From Candidatus Omnitrophota bacterium (GTDB taxonomy: Bacteria; Omnitrophota; Gorgyraeia; Zapsychrales; Fredricksoniimonadaceae): 64,000 nucleotides of DNA. Made by a program: the position numbers and the translations under genes. The notes beneath the pieces are model-generated. The model was not told the origin of the DNA, did no database searches, and worked only from the letters and a program-made list of their open reading frames with translations. Positions within the stretch are counted from its first letter, which is position 1, and every line of letters starts with the position of its first letter. The DNA lies in NCBI GenBank assembly GCA_903944345.1, contig CAJARJ010000021.1, positions 110,900 to 174,899 on the forward strand, written 5' to 3'. Shown here piece by piece: positions 15,140 to 24,347 of the stretch.

Positions 15140-16555
15140 TTAAGCACGACCGGTTTTTGGCTTGACTGTGGCTGCTCCCCAAAGATTGCCCGCAGCTTCC
15201 ATCAAGGTTTCTGCCGTCGTTGGATGAGGATGCACTGCAAGTGCGAGTTGGTCAGCTGTCATTTTCGTATCAATCGCCAGAACTCCCTCTGCGATAAGTT
15301 CTCCCGCGCCGGCTCCAATAATACCCACACCCAGGATTCGCCTGTTGTCCGGATCGGCAATGATCTTGGTCACGCCTTCCGGGCGGTTCATGGTCAGTGC
15401 CCGGCCGTTGGCTGCCCACGGGAACCGGGAAACAGTAACAGGGATGTTATTTTGTTTGGCGGACTGCTCGGTCAGCCCCGCCCAGGCGAGCTGTGTTCGG
15501 GTAAAGATGACCGAAGGAATGGTGGGCTCTTCGGGGGCGCATGGGAGCCCCGCCATGATCCGGATAACTTTTCCGGCTTCGAAAGAAGCCTTGTGAGCCA
15601 GAAGGGGATTGCCAGCCACATCTCCGATGGCAAAGATGCCTTCTTCGTGCGTGCGGTTGTTTTTGTCGACAAGAATAAATCCGCGCGCATCTGTTTTGAT
15701 GGCCGTGTTTTCCAGGCCGAGTCCGCAGGTTTGCGGACGTCTTCCCACGGCTGCCAGCACATGACTGTAGGTCTCGCTGAGTTCCTTTCCCTGGCTGTTG
15801 GAGAGGACAACCCGTATGCCTTCCGGAACTTCCTCGGCTCGTATGGCTCTGGTTCCTGTCAGGATAGAATGAAATTCTTTTTTAAGGCAGCGGGCAAGAA
15901 TGTCTGCCAGGTCGCGGTCAGGGCCGTTAAGCAGTTGCGGCAAGCTTTCGACGACGGTAACTTTTGTGCCCAAAGCCGAGTAAACACTTCCCAGTTCCAG
16001 TCCGATATAACCCCCGCCAATGACAAGCAGGGATGGTGGAATGCAGGGGAGGCTCAGGGCGCTGGTGGAGTCCCAGACACGGGGACTGGAAGGAAGTAAA
16101 GGCAGAGTAACGGGAGTTGTTCCTGTTGCCAGGATGGCCAGGTCGAAAGCTATCTGAATTGTCGATCCGTCAGGTGTAGTGATTGCAGCTTCATGAGAAC
16201 CGGTGAGTTTTGCTGTTCCACGGATAAAATTGATTTTACGCTGTTTGCACAGCTGATCCAGCCCGGATGTCAGGCGGGAAAGAATATTGTTTTTCCAGGT
16301 GCGCAACTTGTCCAGGTCGATGTGCGGCTGGGAGAAGGTGATGCCCATTTTTGCGGCTTCCTGTGCTTCACGCAGGACTTCGGCGGTGTGAAGGAGTGCT
16401 TTGGAGGGGATGCATCCTTTGGAAAGGCAAGTGCCTCCTAAAAAAGGGTCGCGGTCAACCAGAGTGACATTAAAGCCGCGATCTGCGGCATTGAAAGCGG
16501 CCGAGTAGCCTCCAGGGCCAGCCCCGATAACAAGTAGTCTTTGGGATGAATTCAT
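15140..16555 (-). CDS. lpdA: dihydrolipoyl dehydrogenase (FAD pyridine nucleotide-disulfide oxidoreductase)
   Basis: GAGPGG FAD motif, redox-active GGTCLSKGCIPSK, C-terminal HPHPT interface motif. Confidence 0.75.
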   Translation of the reverse strand: MNSSQRLLVIGAGPGGYSAAFNAADRGFNVTLVDRDPFLGGTCLSKGCIPSKALLHTAEVLREAQEAAKMGITFSQPHIDLDKLRTWKNNILSRLTSGLDQLCKQRKINFIRGTAKLTGSHEAAITTPDGSTIQIAFDLAILATGTTPVTLPLLPSSPRVWDSTSALSLPCIPPSLLVIGGGYIGLELGSVYSALGTKVTVVESLPQLLNGPDRDLADILARCLKKEFHSILTGTRAIRAEEVPEGIRVVLSNSQGKELSETYSHVLAAVGRRPQTCGLGLENTAIKTDARGFILVDKNNRTHEEGIFAIGDVAGNPLLAHKASFEAGKVIRIMAGLPCAPEEPTIPSVIFTRTQLAWAGLTEQSAKQNNIPVTVSRFPWAANGRALTMNRPEGVTKIIADPDNRRILGVGIIGAGAGELIAEGVLAIDTKMTADQLALAVHPHPTTAETLMEAAGNLWGAATVKPKTGRA

Positions 16556-16666
16556 AGGGTTGTGTTCCTTTGCCGGGTGACATTTTTGCCCGGTATTATA
16601 GCACACAACAGTCAGGTTATGCTCAGATGAGCACAGTTCGGCCGGAATCCGGGATAGTGGAAGTTT

Positions 16667-17986
16667 TCAGTGTCCTTGTGTCGCAGACGGGGAAATTTTC
16701 TGCAGACGACCGGAGAGTTCGTCAAGTTCCCGGTCGCCTGTTTCGAGTGACGCCTCGACGGCAGACAGTTCACGTTCGATGTCTGTCAGGCTCCGGTCAA
16801 CCAGTGCAAGGTCTTTTTGTTGCAGGCTGATGGCTGCATCTTTTTCGTTCATCTGTGTTTTGCGCTGCTCGCTCTGTATCTTGAGTTCAGAAATTTCGTT
16901 GGCACGCAGGTTTAGGGTTTCGTTGGCCCGGGTACGTTGCTCTTTTTCGGTTGCAAGGGTTTGCTTGAGGGTTGCGATTTCCTGGGTCAGTTGGACAATC
17001 TGTTCGTTTAGCTGGGCAACTGTTTTGTTGCTCTGAGCCAGAGAGTTCTTAAGACCGGACAGAGATTCGTCCCTGGCCGCCGTGTCGGCACGCAGCTTGT
17101 TCAGTTCGGCCGAGCGCTCGGCAAGCTGACTTTTAATGTTGTTGATTTCACTCTCCTGTCGAGGGTCGTTATAATTGATTTTTGAACGCAGCTCGCCGAA
17201 ATATTTTTCAATGCGGTCCACAGCGGCAATCGCTGCGGTTTCAGAGCCTTTGAGGTCGGAATTAATCCGGGTAAGGCTGGTTTTAAGTGCGTTAAGTTGC
17301 TCGATATCGGCGGTCACAGATGCATTTTGCCCGATCATTAATGCGCGTTGTTCGACCAGCAGTTTCTGGTTTTCTGCAGAGGACGGCTGGTTCACTACGG
17401 TTGTTGCAGAGGCGAGCGGCTGTCTTTTTTCAAGCTCTTTGAGGATTTCTCCTGCACGAAGCAAATTCTGGGGAACACGTTCGGGCTGCAGTTCGGCTGT
17501 TTCGCTTAAATATTGTTCGCTATAGGTATTGCCGAACAGTTTCTCTCGCAGCTCCATGACTTCCCTGGTCCGTTTATGCAAGGACATGTAAAGCTGATCG
17601 TTTTCGGTAACAAGTTCACGGATCAGTCCGCTCAGCTCTTTGAATTCGGACTCCCTTGATCTGGCCTCCTTGCGAAGATAAGAGAGATCGGCCAGGATCG
17701 CAAGCGACTGATCGTCAGTTTTTACGCGAGGGACAAGTCCTTTGGCCGTACGGGCCAGGTAATCCTGGGCTGTTTTGTTTTCAGGGTCGATAAGTAAGAT
17801 TCGTTCAAAGTCCTTGGTAGACTGCTGGATATTCCCCTGTTCAAAAGCCTGGATAGCGAATGATTCAAGAAAGCGCAGACTCCCGGGGTCGTTTTGGGCT
17901 TGGACCGGAAGAGCGCACAGCCCCGGAAACAGCAAGGCTGAGAGCAGGATAAGCAGGCGTTGAGAAAAAAAGTTTATGTTATTCAT
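16667..17986 (-). CDS. secreted protein with an N-terminal TPR-like helix pair and a long coiled coil
   Basis: Signal peptide (LLSALLFPGLCALPVQA), then FERILLIDPENKTAQDYLARTA, then about 330 aa of heptad-rich, Q/E/L-rich sequence. Confidence 0.5.
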   Translation of the reverse strand: MNNINFFSQRLLILLSALLFPGLCALPVQAQNDPGSLRFLESFAIQAFEQGNIQQSTKDFERILLIDPENKTAQDYLARTAKGLVPRVKTDDQSLAILADLSYLRKEARSRESEFKELSGLIRELVTENDQLYMSLHKRTREVMELREKLFGNTYSEQYLSETAELQPERVPQNLLRAGEILKELEKRQPLASATTVVNQPSSAENQKLLVEQRALMIGQNASVTADIEQLNALKTSLTRINSDLKGSETAAIAAVDRIEKYFGELRSKINYNDPRQESEINNIKSQLAERSAELNKLRADTAARDESLSGLKNSLAQSNKTVAQLNEQIVQLTQEIATLKQTLATEKEQRTRANETLNLRANEISELKIQSEQRKTQMNEKDAAISLQQKDLALVDRSLTDIERELSAVEASLETGDRELDELSGRLQKISPSATQGH

Positions 17987-17990
17987 GTTG

Positions 17991-18818
17991 TCATTTCCCC
18001 TGAATAGATGAAATGTCCTGGCGCAAGGCCCGGATGGTCTGGTTTTTTTGGTCGATTGACGACTGGATAGCGCGAATGCGCTCTTGTATGCGGGTCAGCC
18101 GTCTGGCCAGATCAGTGTCCTGCGGCTCTGTGCTGATAATCTTTTCAGTCTTTATTTGAGCAGAGTTTTCTGATTTCAGGCTGACAGAGGAGTTGGGCTG
18201 ATTTTTCATGCGTTCGATGATCGCGGACATTTCATCGGCCTGACTGCGGCTTTCATCCAGCTTCTTCAGAAGTAATTCCAGATTTCCGGTGTTGTTGGTG
18301 CGTAACCCTGCCAGCTCTTTTTCAAGCGCGGAGACATTGTTCTGCATTTGATTGATGATGAGTGTGTATTTTCTGCTGTTTTCGGCCAGTTCTTTACGGG
18401 CTTGAACAGCCTTGCGGCTGTGTCGGAAAATCTGTTCCTGCAAAAGCAACCGGTCGTGTTCATAGAAGACAGAGGCTGAAACAAAGTCGACCTGGTTAAA
18501 ATCCAGTTGTTCACAAGGAAGATTTCCTAGAGTTTCTTCGGCTATTGTCGCGCCCGGAGCGGCGGTGGCAATTTTTTGCAGATGATATTGAGCCAGTTTA
18601 TTGCTGCATTCCAGTTCCAGAATCCGCTTGAAAGCGTCTGCTGCCTGGGAGTAATGACCGCCCAGATACAGTTCACGGGCATAACGGGTCATTTGCCCGG
18701 TGGTTATTTGGCGCACGGTTTTGTGATCAATGTCCGTTTGTAAAGGTGCAGACAGAGCAGTGGTCAGCGGGGCAGCCAGAAAACAAGAGAATAAAGCAGA
18801 TAAAAATAAATAGCGCAT
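17991..18818 (-). CDS. secreted TPR-like/coiled-coil protein, a paralogue of the downstream gene
   Basis: Signal peptide. FKRILELECSNKLAQYHLQKIA is homologous to the N-terminal module of 16667..17986. Coiled-coil C-terminus. Confidence 0.5.
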   Translation of the reverse strand: MRYLFLSALFSCFLAAPLTTALSAPLQTDIDHKTVRQITTGQMTRYARELYLGGHYSQAADAFKRILELECSNKLAQYHLQKIATAAPGATIAEETLGNLPCEQLDFNQVDFVSASVFYEHDRLLLQEQIFRHSRKAVQARKELAENSRKYTLIINQMQNNVSALEKELAGLRTNNTGNLELLLKKLDESRSQADEMSAIIERMKNQPNSSVSLKSENSAQIKTEKIISTEPQDTDLARRLTRIQERIRAIQSSIDQKNQTIRALRQDISSIQGK

Positions 18819-18981
18819 GACGATTCCTGTTTTTGCAGATTTCTCAAGATTTAACGCAAAAGTATAACATCAATCTGTATGAATTGCCAGAAAACGACCC
18901 GATAGGCAAAATTATAACCATAATCACCAATAAGTGTCAAACAATAAGAAAATGCTGGTTCGACAGGCATATCGATAATTT

Positions 18982-21579
18982 TTATTTAAAAAAGCTGGCC
19001 ACTGAAATCTCCGCTGGACTGATGGCACGAATCAAAGGTGTAAGTCCTTTTTCTAATATAGTTTGCATGCTTTTTGAGAGGGGGCTGTTTTGCGTGTCCT
19101 GATTGGTTTCGATAGATATGTCCAGGGAGGAAGGGTCAAGGTCAATACCGCCAGGCGTTTGGGGGGCTTGGGAGCGGTCAATCATAAGCGGGATCGATTC
19201 CTCCTGGAAAGCAGTGGCATCTTTTCCGTCCAACTCGCGGAGATAGTCGCGCAAATTATTGTCGATGGTGGCCACTCCGTCAGTAAGTTTGGTTTGTCCT
19301 TTAGGCCAGCAAACAACAATATACCACCCTTGTTCCGGGATGAGCCGCGCATAGAAAGCGTAGTTGTTCGCCAAGGTCAGATGATAAAAGCCTTCGTGCA
19401 GGTTGTTCTCGGGGTCATTATAAAACTTAATCAATGTTTTGATGATGTTTTCGAGCATGTTCGGTTGTACGGAAACCCAGGTTTTTCTTTTTATAAGGAA
19501 AACAGGCAGATCAGCGGCTACTATTTGTGTCTGCGTTTTTTGTTTGGCTCTAAAGGAGCTGGGGGAAATGTGTATGTTCCTGAGTAACTCGATGATTCGG
19601 GGAAGAGGGATAATCAGATTATCCGATAGTTCGGCCGACATGGAATCAAAATCATTCCAGAGGCCGTTCTGGATTTTTTTCAGCAAAGATTCTTCGGAGA
19701 ATGCGTTTGAGAAGTCGCCTTCTTCTTCCTTGCGGATGACATGCTCGTCGCGGATTTCAAGAAAAAGTTTCGCCCGATTTTCGGGGGTCAGATTTTCTTG
19801 TGGATTAGGATGCTGCGCCAGCAGAGGCCGTAGAATGCTTGTGATCCGTTTGAACCGTTCGTCTACAGAATATTGATGCATGCCGCCCGCGGCAAGGGCC
19901 GCTTTCAGATCCGGATCGGTTTCTTCTTTCAGTTCCCTGAAAAGACGTTGAGAAGATTTGGGATACGCTTTGTCGTCCAGTCGCCAATAAGCCCGGAGCA
20001 GTGCCAGATCCTCTTTATCCAGCGTCAATTGACCGGCAAACATTGGCAGGGCCGTTTCAGGTCCGTCAGCGTTGATGATCGGTAAAAGTGATCTGAGATA
20101 GATGTCGCGCAGAACGTAGAGAGGGATCTCCGCGGGGAATTTCGTGATGCCGGCGGTCTGTTCGAGCGATTTTGTAAAGGTACCGGCCTGTTTTTTGGAG
20201 AGCACTATCGGGACGCTGTCTATTTCAGTACGAATGGCATCGTAAGCAGAAATACTCCCGTCGGACTCAAGCGGGGCATCGTTCAGAAGATCGCGCAAAG
20301 CGGCAATATGATTGTTGATTTGCAGGAGGAAGACGGATATGTCCGGACTTTTTTTGAGCCAGGGGGTCATGTTGTTGCGTATGGCCGACAAAAGTGTGTT
20401 GAACGTATTGGGTGCGACAGGTTTTGTGCGTGATCCATTTGTGTTTTTCCTGGTGGCCGGAGGCTGGGATGCATCCTTGACCGGTTCCAGGATGACGGCT
20501 GCCCGTCGATATTTTCTTTCGGGTACTTCTGCCAGGTCTATCAGGATCGGGTCCGGCATTTGCAGCTGCAGACCTCCCGAGGTGTATTTGCGGACAATCA
20601 TGTCTCCTGTAAGCGGATCCTGGTCTTCCTTGATAAACGAGTAAGCTCCTTGCCGAAAGGCCTCCATGTACTGTTCCCACAGGCGCTGAGGGGTTCGGCT
20701 ATCCGTACTAGCCACTCCCCGGATTTTATTCTGGTCAGCGTATGCTTTGGTTAGAAAGGCCGAGCGGAGTTTGTGTTTAAACCAGGAGGCCAGAACAAGG
20801 CTGGATGAAATTGAGCGCAGTGGCGCGAAACGGGCATCGTTATTGACTTGCTCCTCGAGATACGGCAACAGGATTTCGCGTAAAAGTCCTTCTGCCAGGG
20901 CATCCCGCCGGGTTTGCCGTTCCTGGTCGCCAAGAGAAACCCTTGGAATATCCGGATCGGTTTTAAGGAGAACTTTCAGGCGCACAGCCGATACAAAAAC
21001 GCCGTTGCGGCTGTTTTCGTGCAGCCGAACCTGGTCAAGTGTAATCCATGCCTTGTGAACCAGATTGACGGGCATGTCAGCGGTTTCTCCCTGTTCGCTG
21101 GCCAGGGTATAAAAGCGTTTCCAGAAAAGATCTCCGACCGGATGCCCGGGCGCCAGTGCCAGGGAAACCTCCTGTTTCAGGGCCTGGTCTTGTTCAAGCA
21201 TGTCCCGTCCCATGATGGTTTCTCCCAGCGATGGAGGAATAATACGGTCTTGTTCGTTGGGGGAAAGGTTGACCCAGAGCTCTTTTTCAGGAACGGTCAG
21301 GGCGGTCAGAAAATATTTGACCAGCCGGGTGGTTTCGTTTTTAAGTGTTAAAGAAGGCATATGGGTATTGTCTTCCAGAAGGAAATCCAGCCGGAGTGGA
21401 TGTTCAGGGGCGATTTTTATTCCACATAGTCGAAGAGGGGTGTTGAGTGCTGGCAAGGCTACCGGCTCCGGAGATAATGCGGCGCTAAGAGAGGGCAGAG
21501 GAATCCCGCCAAGCGGTAGAAATAAAGCCAGAAATACACAAAGAAATAAACGAATCGGGGAATATAAGAAATATTTCAT
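18982..21579 (-). CDS. large secreted protein of unknown function (paralogue A, 865 aa)
   Basis: Signal peptide. A ~330 aa N-terminal region is clearly homologous to that of 21687..24347 (YFLTALTVPEKELWVNLSPNE; AVWFKHKLRSAFLTKAYADQNKIRGV). The C-terminus has no recognisable domain. Confidence 0.6.
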   Translation of the reverse strand: MKYFLYSPIRLFLCVFLALFLPLGGIPLPSLSAALSPEPVALPALNTPLRLCGIKIAPEHPLRLDFLLEDNTHMPSLTLKNETTRLVKYFLTALTVPEKELWVNLSPNEQDRIIPPSLGETIMGRDMLEQDQALKQEVSLALAPGHPVGDLFWKRFYTLASEQGETADMPVNLVHKAWITLDQVRLHENSRNGVFVSAVRLKVLLKTDPDIPRVSLGDQERQTRRDALAEGLLREILLPYLEEQVNNDARFAPLRSISSSLVLASWFKHKLRSAFLTKAYADQNKIRGVASTDSRTPQRLWEQYMEAFRQGAYSFIKEDQDPLTGDMIVRKYTSGGLQLQMPDPILIDLAEVPERKYRRAAVILEPVKDASQPPATRKNTNGSRTKPVAPNTFNTLLSAIRNNMTPWLKKSPDISVFLLQINNHIAALRDLLNDAPLESDGSISAYDAIRTEIDSVPIVLSKKQAGTFTKSLEQTAGITKFPAEIPLYVLRDIYLRSLLPIINADGPETALPMFAGQLTLDKEDLALLRAYWRLDDKAYPKSSQRLFRELKEETDPDLKAALAAGGMHQYSVDERFKRITSILRPLLAQHPNPQENLTPENRAKLFLEIRDEHVIRKEEEGDFSNAFSEESLLKKIQNGLWNDFDSMSAELSDNLIIPLPRIIELLRNIHISPSSFRAKQKTQTQIVAADLPVFLIKRKTWVSVQPNMLENIIKTLIKFYNDPENNLHEGFYHLTLANNYAFYARLIPEQGWYIVVCWPKGQTKLTDGVATIDNNLRDYLRELDGKDATAFQEESIPLMIDRSQAPQTPGGIDLDPSSLDISIETNQDTQNSPLSKSMQTILEKGLTPLIRAISPAEISVASFFK

Positions 21580-21686
21580 TATTTAAATATAGCATCTCGC
21601 GAGAGCTTAAAACAAGGAGGGATTAGGGGGGCCGGGTTGTTTTTGAATGAAGAATAGGTTTATACTTGTAACGTCTTGTTCACATT

Positions 21687-24347
21687 ATGGAAAAATATTT
21701 CAGGTCAGGCATGCAAAAATTGTTGGTTTGTATAGTTTTGAGTGTGTACTGTTCGGGGCTATTTTCGCCTGTGAGCGTGGCCGCGGTCGCTTTGCCTCCC
21801 GCAGGCGTTCCGGTACGCGGCAGCGAGCTTTTTGTTCCGGCTCTGCTGAAAGGTGTTCGTTTCTTTGCGGATGAGCCCTTTAGGCTGGAATTTTTTGTTG
21901 ATGCGGGTGATGGAATTGACAATGACGCTTTGCTTGAAGCTGAAACAGACAGGCTGATTAAATATTTTTTGGCCGCCTTGACTCTTCCTGAGCGGGATGT
22001 GTGGGTGAATCTTTCGCCTTATGAGAGCGAAAGGATTGTACCGGAGGCTTTGGGGAGGACTCAGCTGGGACAGGATCTTTTAGCCCAGGATTATGTCCTT
22101 AAACAATTGAGTGCTTCTTTAGTACATCCTGACGAAGAGGGCGGAAAGCATTTCTGGCGCGAGGTTTATCGAGCGGCGAGAGAGTTGTACGGAACCAGCG
22201 ATATTCCGGTGGATACCTTTAACAAGGTCTGGGTTGTTCCGGCCACGGCTGGGGTTTATGCCACAGAGGGTGGGGTCTTTATTGTAGATTCTTCGCTCAA
22301 GGTGCTGGGAGAGGAAGATTATCTGGCGCTGAGTCAGGCCGGACAGGCTTTCGGAGATGACCTTCAGAAACAGCTTTCATTGTTGTCCGGTCAGGCTTTG
22401 CGGACGGCGATTTTACCGCTTTTGGGGCAAGAGGTGAATCACGGTCGTGATTTTGCGCCGTTACGTCAGATTTACAGTGCCGTTATTCTTGCGGTCTGGT
22501 TCCGTCGACATTTGCGCGATACAATTCTTGGCCGGGCATACGCCGACCGGGGACTGGTGCGCGGAATTGAGGCGGAGGATGCTGATATGAAAGAAAAGAT
22601 TTATCAACAATATCTGGCCGCTTTCCGCAAGGGTGTCTTTGACTTTGTGCGGGAGGAGATCGATACCGACGGCACACTTCTGCCCAGAAAATATTTTTCC
22701 GGGGGAGCGGAGTTTGGGCAGGTGTCGCTGGAGGACAGGTCGCAGTCGGCATTTGAGTTGGTCGGCGGGGCAAGGATTTTCAGGGGGAAGATTTTTCGGG
22801 CTGTAGCCGATCTGGTTAAAACAAAGAGTGAAACACGTTCTCCTGGTGAAATAAAGCCAATTCGGTGGGAGGGCGTAGAGTCGATCCGGGAGCTTGACTA
22901 TAAAGTTTTACGTATGATCGGCAAAGATGTGTTTCGTTTGGGGAGAGCGGAGATAATAAATAAATCCGGACCGCGGAATTCTTTTTATTATCCGATAATA
23001 AATCCTGATACCGGGGAGCCTTATGAAAGACCCGTTGGTTTTAGTGGCGAGTTTTTTACAGACAAGCCTTTAATTGTTGATTTGAACCTGAAACTCAACA
23101 AGTTCGGAACAGACAAAAAGAGTGAGCCTTTGCTGGGCAAACGGTTAGGGAGCTCTTTTCTGCGCCATTTGCTGGCTTTGAGCCATGACATGGTTATTGA
23201 GGGTGGAGTTGAGAATCTTCCGACGAGGAAGGCCTTGGCAGAATCCTGGAAGCGCGGGGAGGTTTCTTCAGAGAATGATTGGCGCCATGTTTTTATCCGT
23301 ACGATTCTTGGAAAGTCTTTCCTGGGTGCGGGAGTAAAGCCGGAAGAGATCTTTATGACTTATTACAGGGACGCTTCTTTCTTGAGAGGGGCTCCGGCTT
23401 TGGAAAGCATGTTGCGGGACTGGGAAATGGGTCTTTTTATTTATCCGGTCGGATTTCATATTGAGAGAGGTGCTGCGCAGGATGCTTTTGATGCTTCCCA
23501 GAAAGAAAGTAGCGGCCGGGATGTGCGGCGATTTTTGCAGCGGCTTGATAATATGACTTTAAGGGAAGTGGACGGGGAGGTTTATCGACTGGGCGAAGTC
23601 CGTATTACGCCATTATCGAGGAAGGAATACAAATTTTCGTACCCCGTGATTGATCCTCGCACCGGCCAGCCCTATGAAGATCCGCTTGGTTTTAGCGGGG
23701 TTATTGAGGCCGGGGCTGCAAAAGTCAAGGATCTTGATCTGCGGCTGCAGGATCAGAATGCCCCGGCAACAGGAAATTTTTTGCTGGGCAAGGGGCTGGG
23801 GAATGTTTTTCAGAGAGAGTTGCTGTCGCTTCATCCGCAGATGGTGATTGAGACCAGTATTGAAAATGTCCCGACAATGGCGGCGATCGATACGGCGATA
23901 GAGCAGGGTCTTATACGTACGGCAGATGATTTGAAACAGGTGTTTCTTTCTTCGGTCCTGGGCAAGAGTGTTCTGGCTTCGGGGGCAAAACCGCACGAAG
24001 TCGTGATGACATACTACGGAATAAGTTATTTCCGGGACGACATTCTTCCTGAAAATCAGCAGGCGGTTGACCAGTTGCTTGCGGATCGTCGTGCCGGAAT
24101 GCAGTTTCGGGTTGGCTACAGGATTGACCGCCGGTTGAGCCATGTGGCATCTGCTGCGGATGCGGTCAAAGGCGGTGTCGATCTTTCTTCGGCGCTCGTA
24201 CCGCTGGATGTCTCGGGGCAGAAAGATTCAGTCCTGAATCAGGCAGAGATGGCAGAACTAACGCAGATCGAGGGTTTGCGTCCGGTTATCTTGCGGATGG
24301 AGAAAGTGGATGATCCGGCGGTTATAACCCGTGCGCTTCGCCTTTGA
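21687..24347 (+). CDS. large secreted protein of unknown function (paralogue B, 886 aa) with a C-terminal tandem repeat
   Basis: Signal peptide. The N-terminal domain is homologous to paralogue A (YFLAALTLPERDVWVNLSPYE; AVWFRRHLRDTILGRAYADRGLVRGI). Two ~215 aa repeats follow (YPIINPDTGEPYERPVGFSG / YPVIDPRTGQPYEDPLGFSG). Confidence 0.6.
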   Translation: MEKYFRSGMQKLLVCIVLSVYCSGLFSPVSVAAVALPPAGVPVRGSELFVPALLKGVRFFADEPFRLEFFVDAGDGIDNDALLEAETDRLIKYFLAALTLPERDVWVNLSPYESERIVPEALGRTQLGQDLLAQDYVLKQLSASLVHPDEEGGKHFWREVYRAARELYGTSDIPVDTFNKVWVVPATAGVYATEGGVFIVDSSLKVLGEEDYLALSQAGQAFGDDLQKQLSLLSGQALRTAILPLLGQEVNHGRDFAPLRQIYSAVILAVWFRRHLRDTILGRAYADRGLVRGIEAEDADMKEKIYQQYLAAFRKGVFDFVREEIDTDGTLLPRKYFSGGAEFGQVSLEDRSQSAFELVGGARIFRGKIFRAVADLVKTKSETRSPGEIKPIRWEGVESIRELDYKVLRMIGKDVFRLGRAEIINKSGPRNSFYYPIINPDTGEPYERPVGFSGEFFTDKPLIVDLNLKLNKFGTDKKSEPLLGKRLGSSFLRHLLALSHDMVIEGGVENLPTRKALAESWKRGEVSSENDWRHVFIRTILGKSFLGAGVKPEEIFMTYYRDASFLRGAPALESMLRDWEMGLFIYPVGFHIERGAAQDAFDASQKESSGRDVRRFLQRLDNMTLREVDGEVYRLGEVRITPLSRKEYKFSYPVIDPRTGQPYEDPLGFSGVIEAGAAKVKDLDLRLQDQNAPATGNFLLGKGLGNVFQRELLSLHPQMVIETSIENVPTMAAIDTAIEQGLIRTADDLKQVFLSSVLGKSVLASGAKPHEVVMTYYGISYFRDDILPENQQAVDQLLADRRAGMQFRVGYRIDRRLSHVASAADAVKGGVDLSSALVPLDVSGQKDSVLNQAEMAELTQIEGLRPVILRMEKVDDPAVITRALRL

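Follow-up and report, generated by a model that had tools for sequence, protein, structure and literature searches.

The stretch analysed here (hereafter the window) is 64,000 nt of contig CAJARJ010000021.1 from an Omnitrophota bacterium, and it carries two adjacent minus-strand genes that we call F1 and F2. F1 (17991..18818) encodes 275 aa comprising a signal peptide, a helical head with one tetratricopeptide repeat (TPR) unit and two invariant cysteines, and coiled-coil helices. F2 (16667..17986) encodes 439 aa, with a signal peptide, a one-TPR head, a LITEND..KRxRE..DRVPQ segment and a long coiled coil. The two reading frames are separated by 4 bp (TGA CAAC ATG; gap at 17987..17990, minus strand), and a GGGGA Shine-Dalgarno-like motif ahead of F2 sits within the 3' end of F1. 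On the same strand, 163 bp upstream of F1, ends gene A (18982..21579, minus), an open reading frame (ORF) of 865 aa. These positions, the strand and both measured gaps agree with the initial annotation of the locus, and the two peptides that it quoted occur verbatim in the F1 and F2 translations. It went on to propose that the three genes are transcribed as one unit. To weigh that proposal, the window was compared with related loci, numbered L001 to L013, and with the ERZ1426829 contig.

F2 directly follows F1 in ten of ten related places, at gaps of -1 to 34 bp. The gap is 4 bp in L001, L004, L005 and L009, 5 bp in L006 and in L010/L011, 8 bp in L012, 17 bp in L013 and 34 bp on the ERZ1426829 contig, and the genes overlap by 1 bp in L008; F1 of L004 is a C-terminal fragment only. 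Both families were confirmed by tblastn in the examined loci other than the ERZ1426829 contig. The pair is convergent with mnmE in all eight places that have enough downstream sequence (L004 and L005 end too soon), and that side reads mnmE-folC-purH-rpsU, at times with one small or unrelated gene between the pair and mnmE. The divergent upstream neighbour is mutS in L009, L010/L011, L013 and the ERZ1426829 contig, a secretin-amidase-murI block in L008, and an efflux/MazE cluster in L012. The constancy of the pairing directly supports an autonomous two-gene operon conserved in Omnitrophota, and the initial placement of F1 and F2 in a single unit stands. Because the cistrons lie 4 bp apart, the two proteins would be made together.

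The conserved order extends well beyond the pair. Across window positions 10777-38783, and in L008, L010 and L013, it reads rpsU-purH-folC-mnmE, then F2-F1, then (mutS-mutL) secretin-Amidase_3-murI-queD-queC-queE-queF-rph-ham1-asmA, with A/B-type (see below), lpdA and chorismate-binding genes inserted at differing points. In the window and L001 the gene between the pair and mnmE is an lpdA-like pyridine-nucleotide-disulfide oxidoreductase gene, which is next after F2 (15140..16606 in the window) and is absent from this position in more distant relatives. An extended -10 sequence, TGCTATAAT, at 16595-16603 on the minus strand lies about 40 nt before the lpdA-like ATG at 16555 and suggests that this gene has its own promoter. 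Genes of the window are almost all on the plus strand, the F1-F2-lpdA-A cluster being one of the few exceptions, and GC skew is positive in every 2-kb bin (0.10-0.24), both strong and uniform.

The promoter region of the pair was examined by consensus scan. The 76 bp 5' of the F1 start are conserved with L001, whereas the remaining upstream region is not, and they hold a promoter-like element at 18861..18890 (minus), CTGGCA and TATACT separated by 18 bp and with the TG of an extended -10. The same architecture, (T/C)TG(A/G)CA-18-TG(C/T)TATACT, recurs in six of eight lineages scanned (window, L001, L005, L009, L012 and L013), 38-53 nt ahead of the F1 start and with the spacer fixed at 18 bp; it was not found in the other two, L008 and L010. 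A second promoter-like site, TTGACA-18-TATAAT at 18911..18940 (minus), matches the sigma-70 consensus at 12/12 positions. It is specific to the window lineage, precedes the conserved F1 promoter and falls where the A-F1 gap loses colinearity with L001. Transcription of F1-F2 is predicted from these elements to be independent of A. A 39-aa ORF called here in the JGI/ENA data (MPVEPAFSYCLTLIGDYGYNFAYRVVFWQFIQIDVILLR, window ~18851-18970, minus) spans both promoter-like sites and is probably a spurious call.

Gene A itself is not a regular neighbour of the pair. By blastn, L001 and the window are colinear but for one place, where 321 bp in L001 (8767-9087) stand against 2926 bp in the window (21820-18895). 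This lineage-specific segment (18895..21820, minus) carries A and is noted here as context only. The C-terminal half of A was found by tblastn in no other lineage among the related loci. A and its divergent neighbour B (21687..24347, plus, 886 aa, with mutS beyond it) resemble each other over the first ~340 residues alone, at 36% identity. In L001, L006, L008, L009, L010/L011, L012, L013 and the ERZ1426829 contig, this A/B-type N-domain is never found upstream of the pair in the same orientation. At these loci it is confined to the B orthologue of L001 and to a gene of 1698 aa that L010/L011 have between mnmE and folC. That A, F1 and F2 are co-transcribed, with the coiled-coil proteins scaffolding or tethering a secreted A, is in accord with their common strand, with the hydrophobic N-termini on all three proteins and with the lack of a terminator-like site between A and F1. 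We nevertheless regard it as very unlikely. The pair persists where A is absent, in the closest relative and in all other lineages, and has its own conserved promoter, and A belongs to a scattered family of more than 188 proteins that have the N-terminal domain alone in common. The initial annotation had itself named independent transcription and a lack of co-conservation with A as evidence against a shared unit. A check of neighbourhood conservation finds F1 and F2 kept together and A not co-conserved in eight other lineages, and the transcription part is predicted. The comparisons indicate that A is no component of the unit but was inserted recently, in the window lineage only, between mutS/B and the pair.

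The A/B N-domain has a hydrophobic N-terminus followed by a conserved core, LSPxExxRIxPxxLGxTxxGxDLLxQDxxLKQ, and heads more than 188 Omnitrophota proteins dispersed in these genomes (relatives P0004-P0122). The C-terminal parts behind it are diverse and normally cytoplasmic: protein kinase, methyltransferases, GT1, GGDEF, receiver, radical SAM, NDK, NUDIX, HEAT, ankyrin, VWA and HTH. The domain looks like a phylum-specific anchoring or targeting module. A and B have no Pfam or NCBIfam match, and a PDB search, made with A alone, gave no sequence match. Proteins of the A/B type may be compared with the membrane-anchored long proteins of bioRxiv 10.64898/2026.06.07.730766. Within gene B, at window position 23573, the window reads GGGG, and L002 and L003, assemblies from other samples that are otherwise 99.98-99.99% identical to the window, have one G more, which splits B into ORFs of 233 and 647 aa. 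The difference reflects either an error in sequencing the homopolymer or a frameshift that is strain- or phase-variable.

Relative to L001, the closest relative (F2 84% identical), the ratio of nonsynonymous to synonymous substitution (dN/dS) is 0.14 for F1 and 0.11 for F2, similar to the 0.03-0.13 of housekeeping neighbours. These ratios indicate that F1 and F2 are real genes under purifying selection. At the N-terminus each protein has a basic n-region, then a hydrophobic stretch of 10 residues or more (mean Kyte-Doolittle 2.25 in F1 and 3.11 in F2) and an A-x-A-type site, ALSA/P in F1 and VQA/Q in F2 (the slash marks the cleavage point). The F1 signal peptide covers residues 1-24 (18747..18818, minus), MRYLFLSALFSCFLAAPLTTALSA followed by P, with the cleavage site read by eye from the n-, h- and c-region features; that of F2 covers residues 1-30 (17897..17986, minus) and ends LPVQA/QNDPG, as judged from the same features and the family alignment. 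The pattern extends to the families: the hydrophobic stretch of at least 10 residues is found in 37/37 members (25 F1 and 12 F2), Lys or Arg precedes it in 36/37, and F2 relatives have a conserved AQA/Y cleavage-type site. Feature analysis thus finds the basic n-region, h-region and A-x-A-type c-region of Sec-exported signal peptidase I substrates, in line with the signal peptides first annotated, and we infer that F1 and F2 are exported to the periplasm. An opposing view would make the N-termini uncleaved anchors, or the proteins not exported at all, leaving cytoplasmic or membrane-bound cytoskeletal or SMC-like proteins. The JGI names of two relatives (P0001 and P0224) and NCBIfam SMC matches of 27-28 bits point that way, but the SMC cut-offs are 567-729 bits and neither an ATPase head nor a hinge is present. 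The basic n-region before the hydrophobic stretch (36/37) puts the C-terminal bulk outside the cytoplasm, and the conserved A-x-A sites and the invariant Cys pair of F1 also argue against this view, which we hold to be highly improbable.

AlphaFold2 models of both proteins were built with the family alignments as input. The F1 model has a four-helix head (residues 32-105; 18504..18725, minus) with a predicted local distance difference test (pLDDT) score of 88-94, which contains the TPR unit, followed by helices 123-174, 177-206 and 233-274. The F2 model has a three-helix head (residues 34-81; 17744..17887, minus) with pLDDT of about 80-85, likewise with a TPR unit, and then helices 93-151, 204-269 and 275-431, the longest of which measures ~23 nm. 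In PDB searches consensus-TPR structures are matched by positions 54-84 of the F1 family profile (E 5.6e-27, a sum over repeats) and by positions 47-77 of the F2 profile (E 1.1e-7). Foldseek superposes both heads on TPR units, of CTPR3 and others, at 2-3 A; neither model has a Foldseek match in the PDB at E <= 1e-3. Pfam TPR_2 matches 8/25 F1 members (best E 8e-5) and reaches only 14.5 bits, against a cut-off of 27, on the window proteins themselves. The family profiles match the 34-residue helix-turn-helix consensus. In the models and alignments the unit stands singly with a capping helix, and no tandem array of at least three repeats with a superhelical groove is seen.

The helices behind the heads form the predicted coiled-coil regions, at 17997..18452 in F1 and 16694..17710 in F2 (both minus), as called from the models and a heptad test. 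In each of the six long helices the a/d positions are hydrophobic more often than in 500 shuffles (z 2.0-5.2), and the last helix of F1 is the conserved C-terminal LQxKFxxIQxRLxxIExxIxxKN motif. The single TPR-like unit and the coiled coil that were originally proposed for each protein are therefore both corroborated. Their description as paralogues is less secure. BLASTP aligns F1 and F2 at 22% identity over ~150 aa (E 7e-6), but the profile-profile match is confident (97%, E 1e-10) solely over the 43-column TPR unit, and common descent beyond the shared TPR head is plausible, not proven. The invariant cysteines of F1, C71 (18606-18608, minus) and C102 (18513-18515, minus), were located in the family alignment, in which R48, E49, A76 and D122 are also invariant.

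Word-index searches with F1 and F2 returned the same species plus relatives 79-84% identical and nothing else. The apparent orphan status of the two proteins is due to word-based searching, since an exhaustive hidden Markov model (HMM) search did find families. The aligned N-terminal modules were searched against 1.84 billion representatives, giving 1131 matches, most of them generic multi-TPR proteins. Among the best 150 of these 1131, ~37 have a single full-length profile match just behind a signal peptide, and fall on inspection into ~26 F1 and 11 F2 clusters, the F1 clusters being defined at 50% identity. F1-like proteins have 210-490 aa, with motifs YRYGRE..Y..G.Y.EA.., DCxNxLAQYHLQKIA, LPCxxYxFxxEDFLPASxYYExD and LEQLxxYNxRYR and the C-terminal helix LQxKFxxIQxRLxxIExxIxxKNxxI. 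F2-like proteins typically have 740-1093 aa, with motifs AQAYxxQLxFLExFA, EFxRILxIDPxN, LITENDxLYxxLxKRxRExxELRE and YxxxYxxxxxxxPxDRVPQRLH and then a long coiled coil; the family range is 439-1093 aa, and one 342-aa sequence may be incomplete. Named relatives are listed as 'hypothetical protein' of a Candidatus Omnitrophica or Omnitrophota bacterium, with one metagenome-assembled genome labelled Elusimicrobia. Scans of genome contigs for F1 and F2 gave no match, a metagenome-contig search gave a single, uninformative contig-end locus, and a literature search found nothing on either family.

Scans of the window proteins and both family alignments against Pfam and NCBIfam gave sub-threshold coiled-coil or TPR matches alone and revealed no enzymatic or known binding domain in either family. 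PDB sequence-profile searches returned designed consensus-TPR proteins and generic coiled coils alone. The statement in the initial annotation that the proteins are not assignable to a known system is borne out, as the domain matches lie below cut-offs and the PDB sequence and fold matches are generic. It had also named a flagellar or cell-division family as an assignment that would speak against its view, and such matches are sub-threshold alone (FlaC_arch, E 0.038; EzrA in 1/25 members). By these searches, F1 and F2 represent two families that are uncharacterised and largely confined to Omnitrophota; their architecture of signal peptide, TPR and coiled coil is a familiar one. Like generic TPR proteins (Pfam clan TPR, designed CTPR), they have a canonical 34-residue helix-turn-helix with a capping helix; unlike them, they have a single unit and not an array of at least three, placed between a signal peptide and a long coiled coil and flanked in F1 by two invariant cysteines.

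Several named identities were considered and rejected. For SMC or 'chromosome segregation ATPase', the JGI name of P0001 and P0224, TIGR02168 reaches 28.4 bits (cut-off 567) and TIGR02169 27.0 bits (cut-off 729), through the coiled coil alone. For the Skp/OmpH chaperone, the JGI name of P0169, F1 matches PF03938 at E 0.21 (12.3 bits, cut-off 32.4), as does 1/25 members of the F1 family at E 0.0075. The NCBIfam match to the Tgl/PilF pilotins is weak (E 0.0077) and below its cut-off. CpoB (YbgF, a periplasmic Tol-Pal-associated protein) is similar to F1 in size, signal peptide, coiled coil and TPR element, but the CpoB coiled coil, which binds TolA and trimerises, is N-terminal and its multi-repeat TPR C-terminal, whereas the order in F1 is reversed and there is one TPR unit; F1 matches PF16331 at E 0.025 (15.1 bits, cut-off 30.1), and no tol-pal genes surround the pair in the examined loci. 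EnvC-type (M23/LytM) proteins, too, are exported and have a long coiled coil, and the wider surroundings of the pair include an amidase gene. Membership is ruled out, F1 and F2 having no LytM/M23 domain and the match of F2 to an M23 peptidase chain, 8tzk_E (E 2.6e-4), covering the coiled coil alone.

Even if F1 and F2 belong to none of these families, they could act in the same way, as periplasmic adaptors or regulators of an envelope machine and not as a structural polymer, coordinating wall synthesis and constriction like CpoB/YbgF, activating an amidase through the coiled coil as EnvC does, or helping the nearby secretin in the manner of a TPR pilotin. F1 resembles CpoB in size and components and matches PF16331 and TPR_2 weakly, the F2 coiled coil weakly resembles that M23 peptidase chain, the Tgl match points to a pilotin, and secretin and Amidase_3 genes lie nearby. 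We consider such a role quite unlikely, because all of these matches are far under the family cut-offs and cover generic TPR or coiled-coil segments alone, the domain order is opposite to that of CpoB, there is neither a tol-pal context nor a LytM domain, and a lipobox pattern occurs in just 1/25 F1 members.

The length of F2 raises the question of which side of the outer membrane the proteins occupy. The periplasm is roughly 25 nm wide in well-studied Gram-negative bacteria, a figure that does not come from Omnitrophota. As one continuous coiled coil, a typical F2 of 740-1093 aa would exceed 100 nm, beyond the width of the periplasm. F1 and F2 might instead pass through the outer membrane and make up fibrils or adhesins on the surface, by which ultra-small, possibly host-dependent Omnitrophota attach to other cells. 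A secretin gene is directly divergent from the pair in L008 and lies within 6 kb of it in the window, L001, L010 and L013, and the central regions of F1 and F2 are variable and of low complexity. However, Pfam and NCBIfam scans recognised no autotransporter barrel, type I (T1SS) or type IX (T9SS) secretion, PEP-CTERM, SLH or LPXTG motif, dN/dS is not raised, unlike in many surface antigens, and the secretin neighbourhood, which L012 lacks, is one portion of a wider syntenic block of housekeeping genes. We find a surface location unlikely.

The reading that we favour, tentatively and with confidence a little short of even, is that F1 and F2 are a co-expressed periplasmic fibrous pair forming an envelope-associated assembly. 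A disulfide between the invariant C71 and C102 would clamp the F1 head. The two proteins could then associate through their similar heads, their coiled coils or both into a hetero-oligomeric fibrous assembly at the envelope, which might serve as a structural or spacing ('periskeletal') element with the TPR heads as docking sites. Several points weigh against this proposal. The signal peptides were called from sequence features, and conservation is the sole basis for the inferred disulfide. The window F2 aligns to the first half of its relatives and does not have the last ~400 residues of most. Pfam and NCBIfam scans found no peptidoglycan-, lipid- or outer-membrane-binding domain to explain anchoring. 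A terminator scan of the window found no minus-strand terminator-like site after A or after F2, so read-through from A, and into the lpdA-like gene, is possible.

The nearest functional precedent for F1-F2, by analogy and not as a family assignment, is CrvA/CrvB of Vibrio. The crvA and crvB genes are adjacent and homologous, the second larger, and cells need both in order to curve; the inner face of the curved cell carries a filament of CrvA protein, and crv homologues are confined to Vibrionaceae (bioRxiv 10.1101/2020.02.20.954503). The likeness lies in two adjacent related genes of which the downstream one is larger and has extra C-terminal sequence. F1 (210-490 aa) and F2 (439-1093 aa) are adjacent, share the TPR head and have the second member larger, a correspondence by analogy only. 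The Omnitrophota proteins differ in having a TPR head, and no sequence homology is claimed. CrvA is described as periplasmic, or 'periskeletal'. It is conceivable, though in our view improbable, that F1-F2 is a phylum-specific two-component periplasmic filament, a functional analogue of CrvAB unrelated to it by descent. Were that so, the filament would give the envelope of the ultra-small Omnitrophota cells reinforcement, shape or spacing, and a structural dimension would be set by how long the F2 coiled coil is (439-1093 aa).

Taken together, the observation of the pair is solid, its link to A is wrong, and its function is speculative. By itself the finding neither overthrows an accepted idea nor opens up a question of long standing. 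It does correct the automatically assigned names 'chromosome segregation ATPase' and 'Skp family chaperone'. To our knowledge almost nothing is known of the envelope biology of Omnitrophota, which are ultra-small bacteria that have not been cultivated and may depend on hosts. With its conserved position, a conserved promoter of its own, predicted export of both products and no homology to characterised families, the pair offers a concrete candidate for a structural element of the Omnitrophota envelope as well as a usable phylogenetic marker locus.

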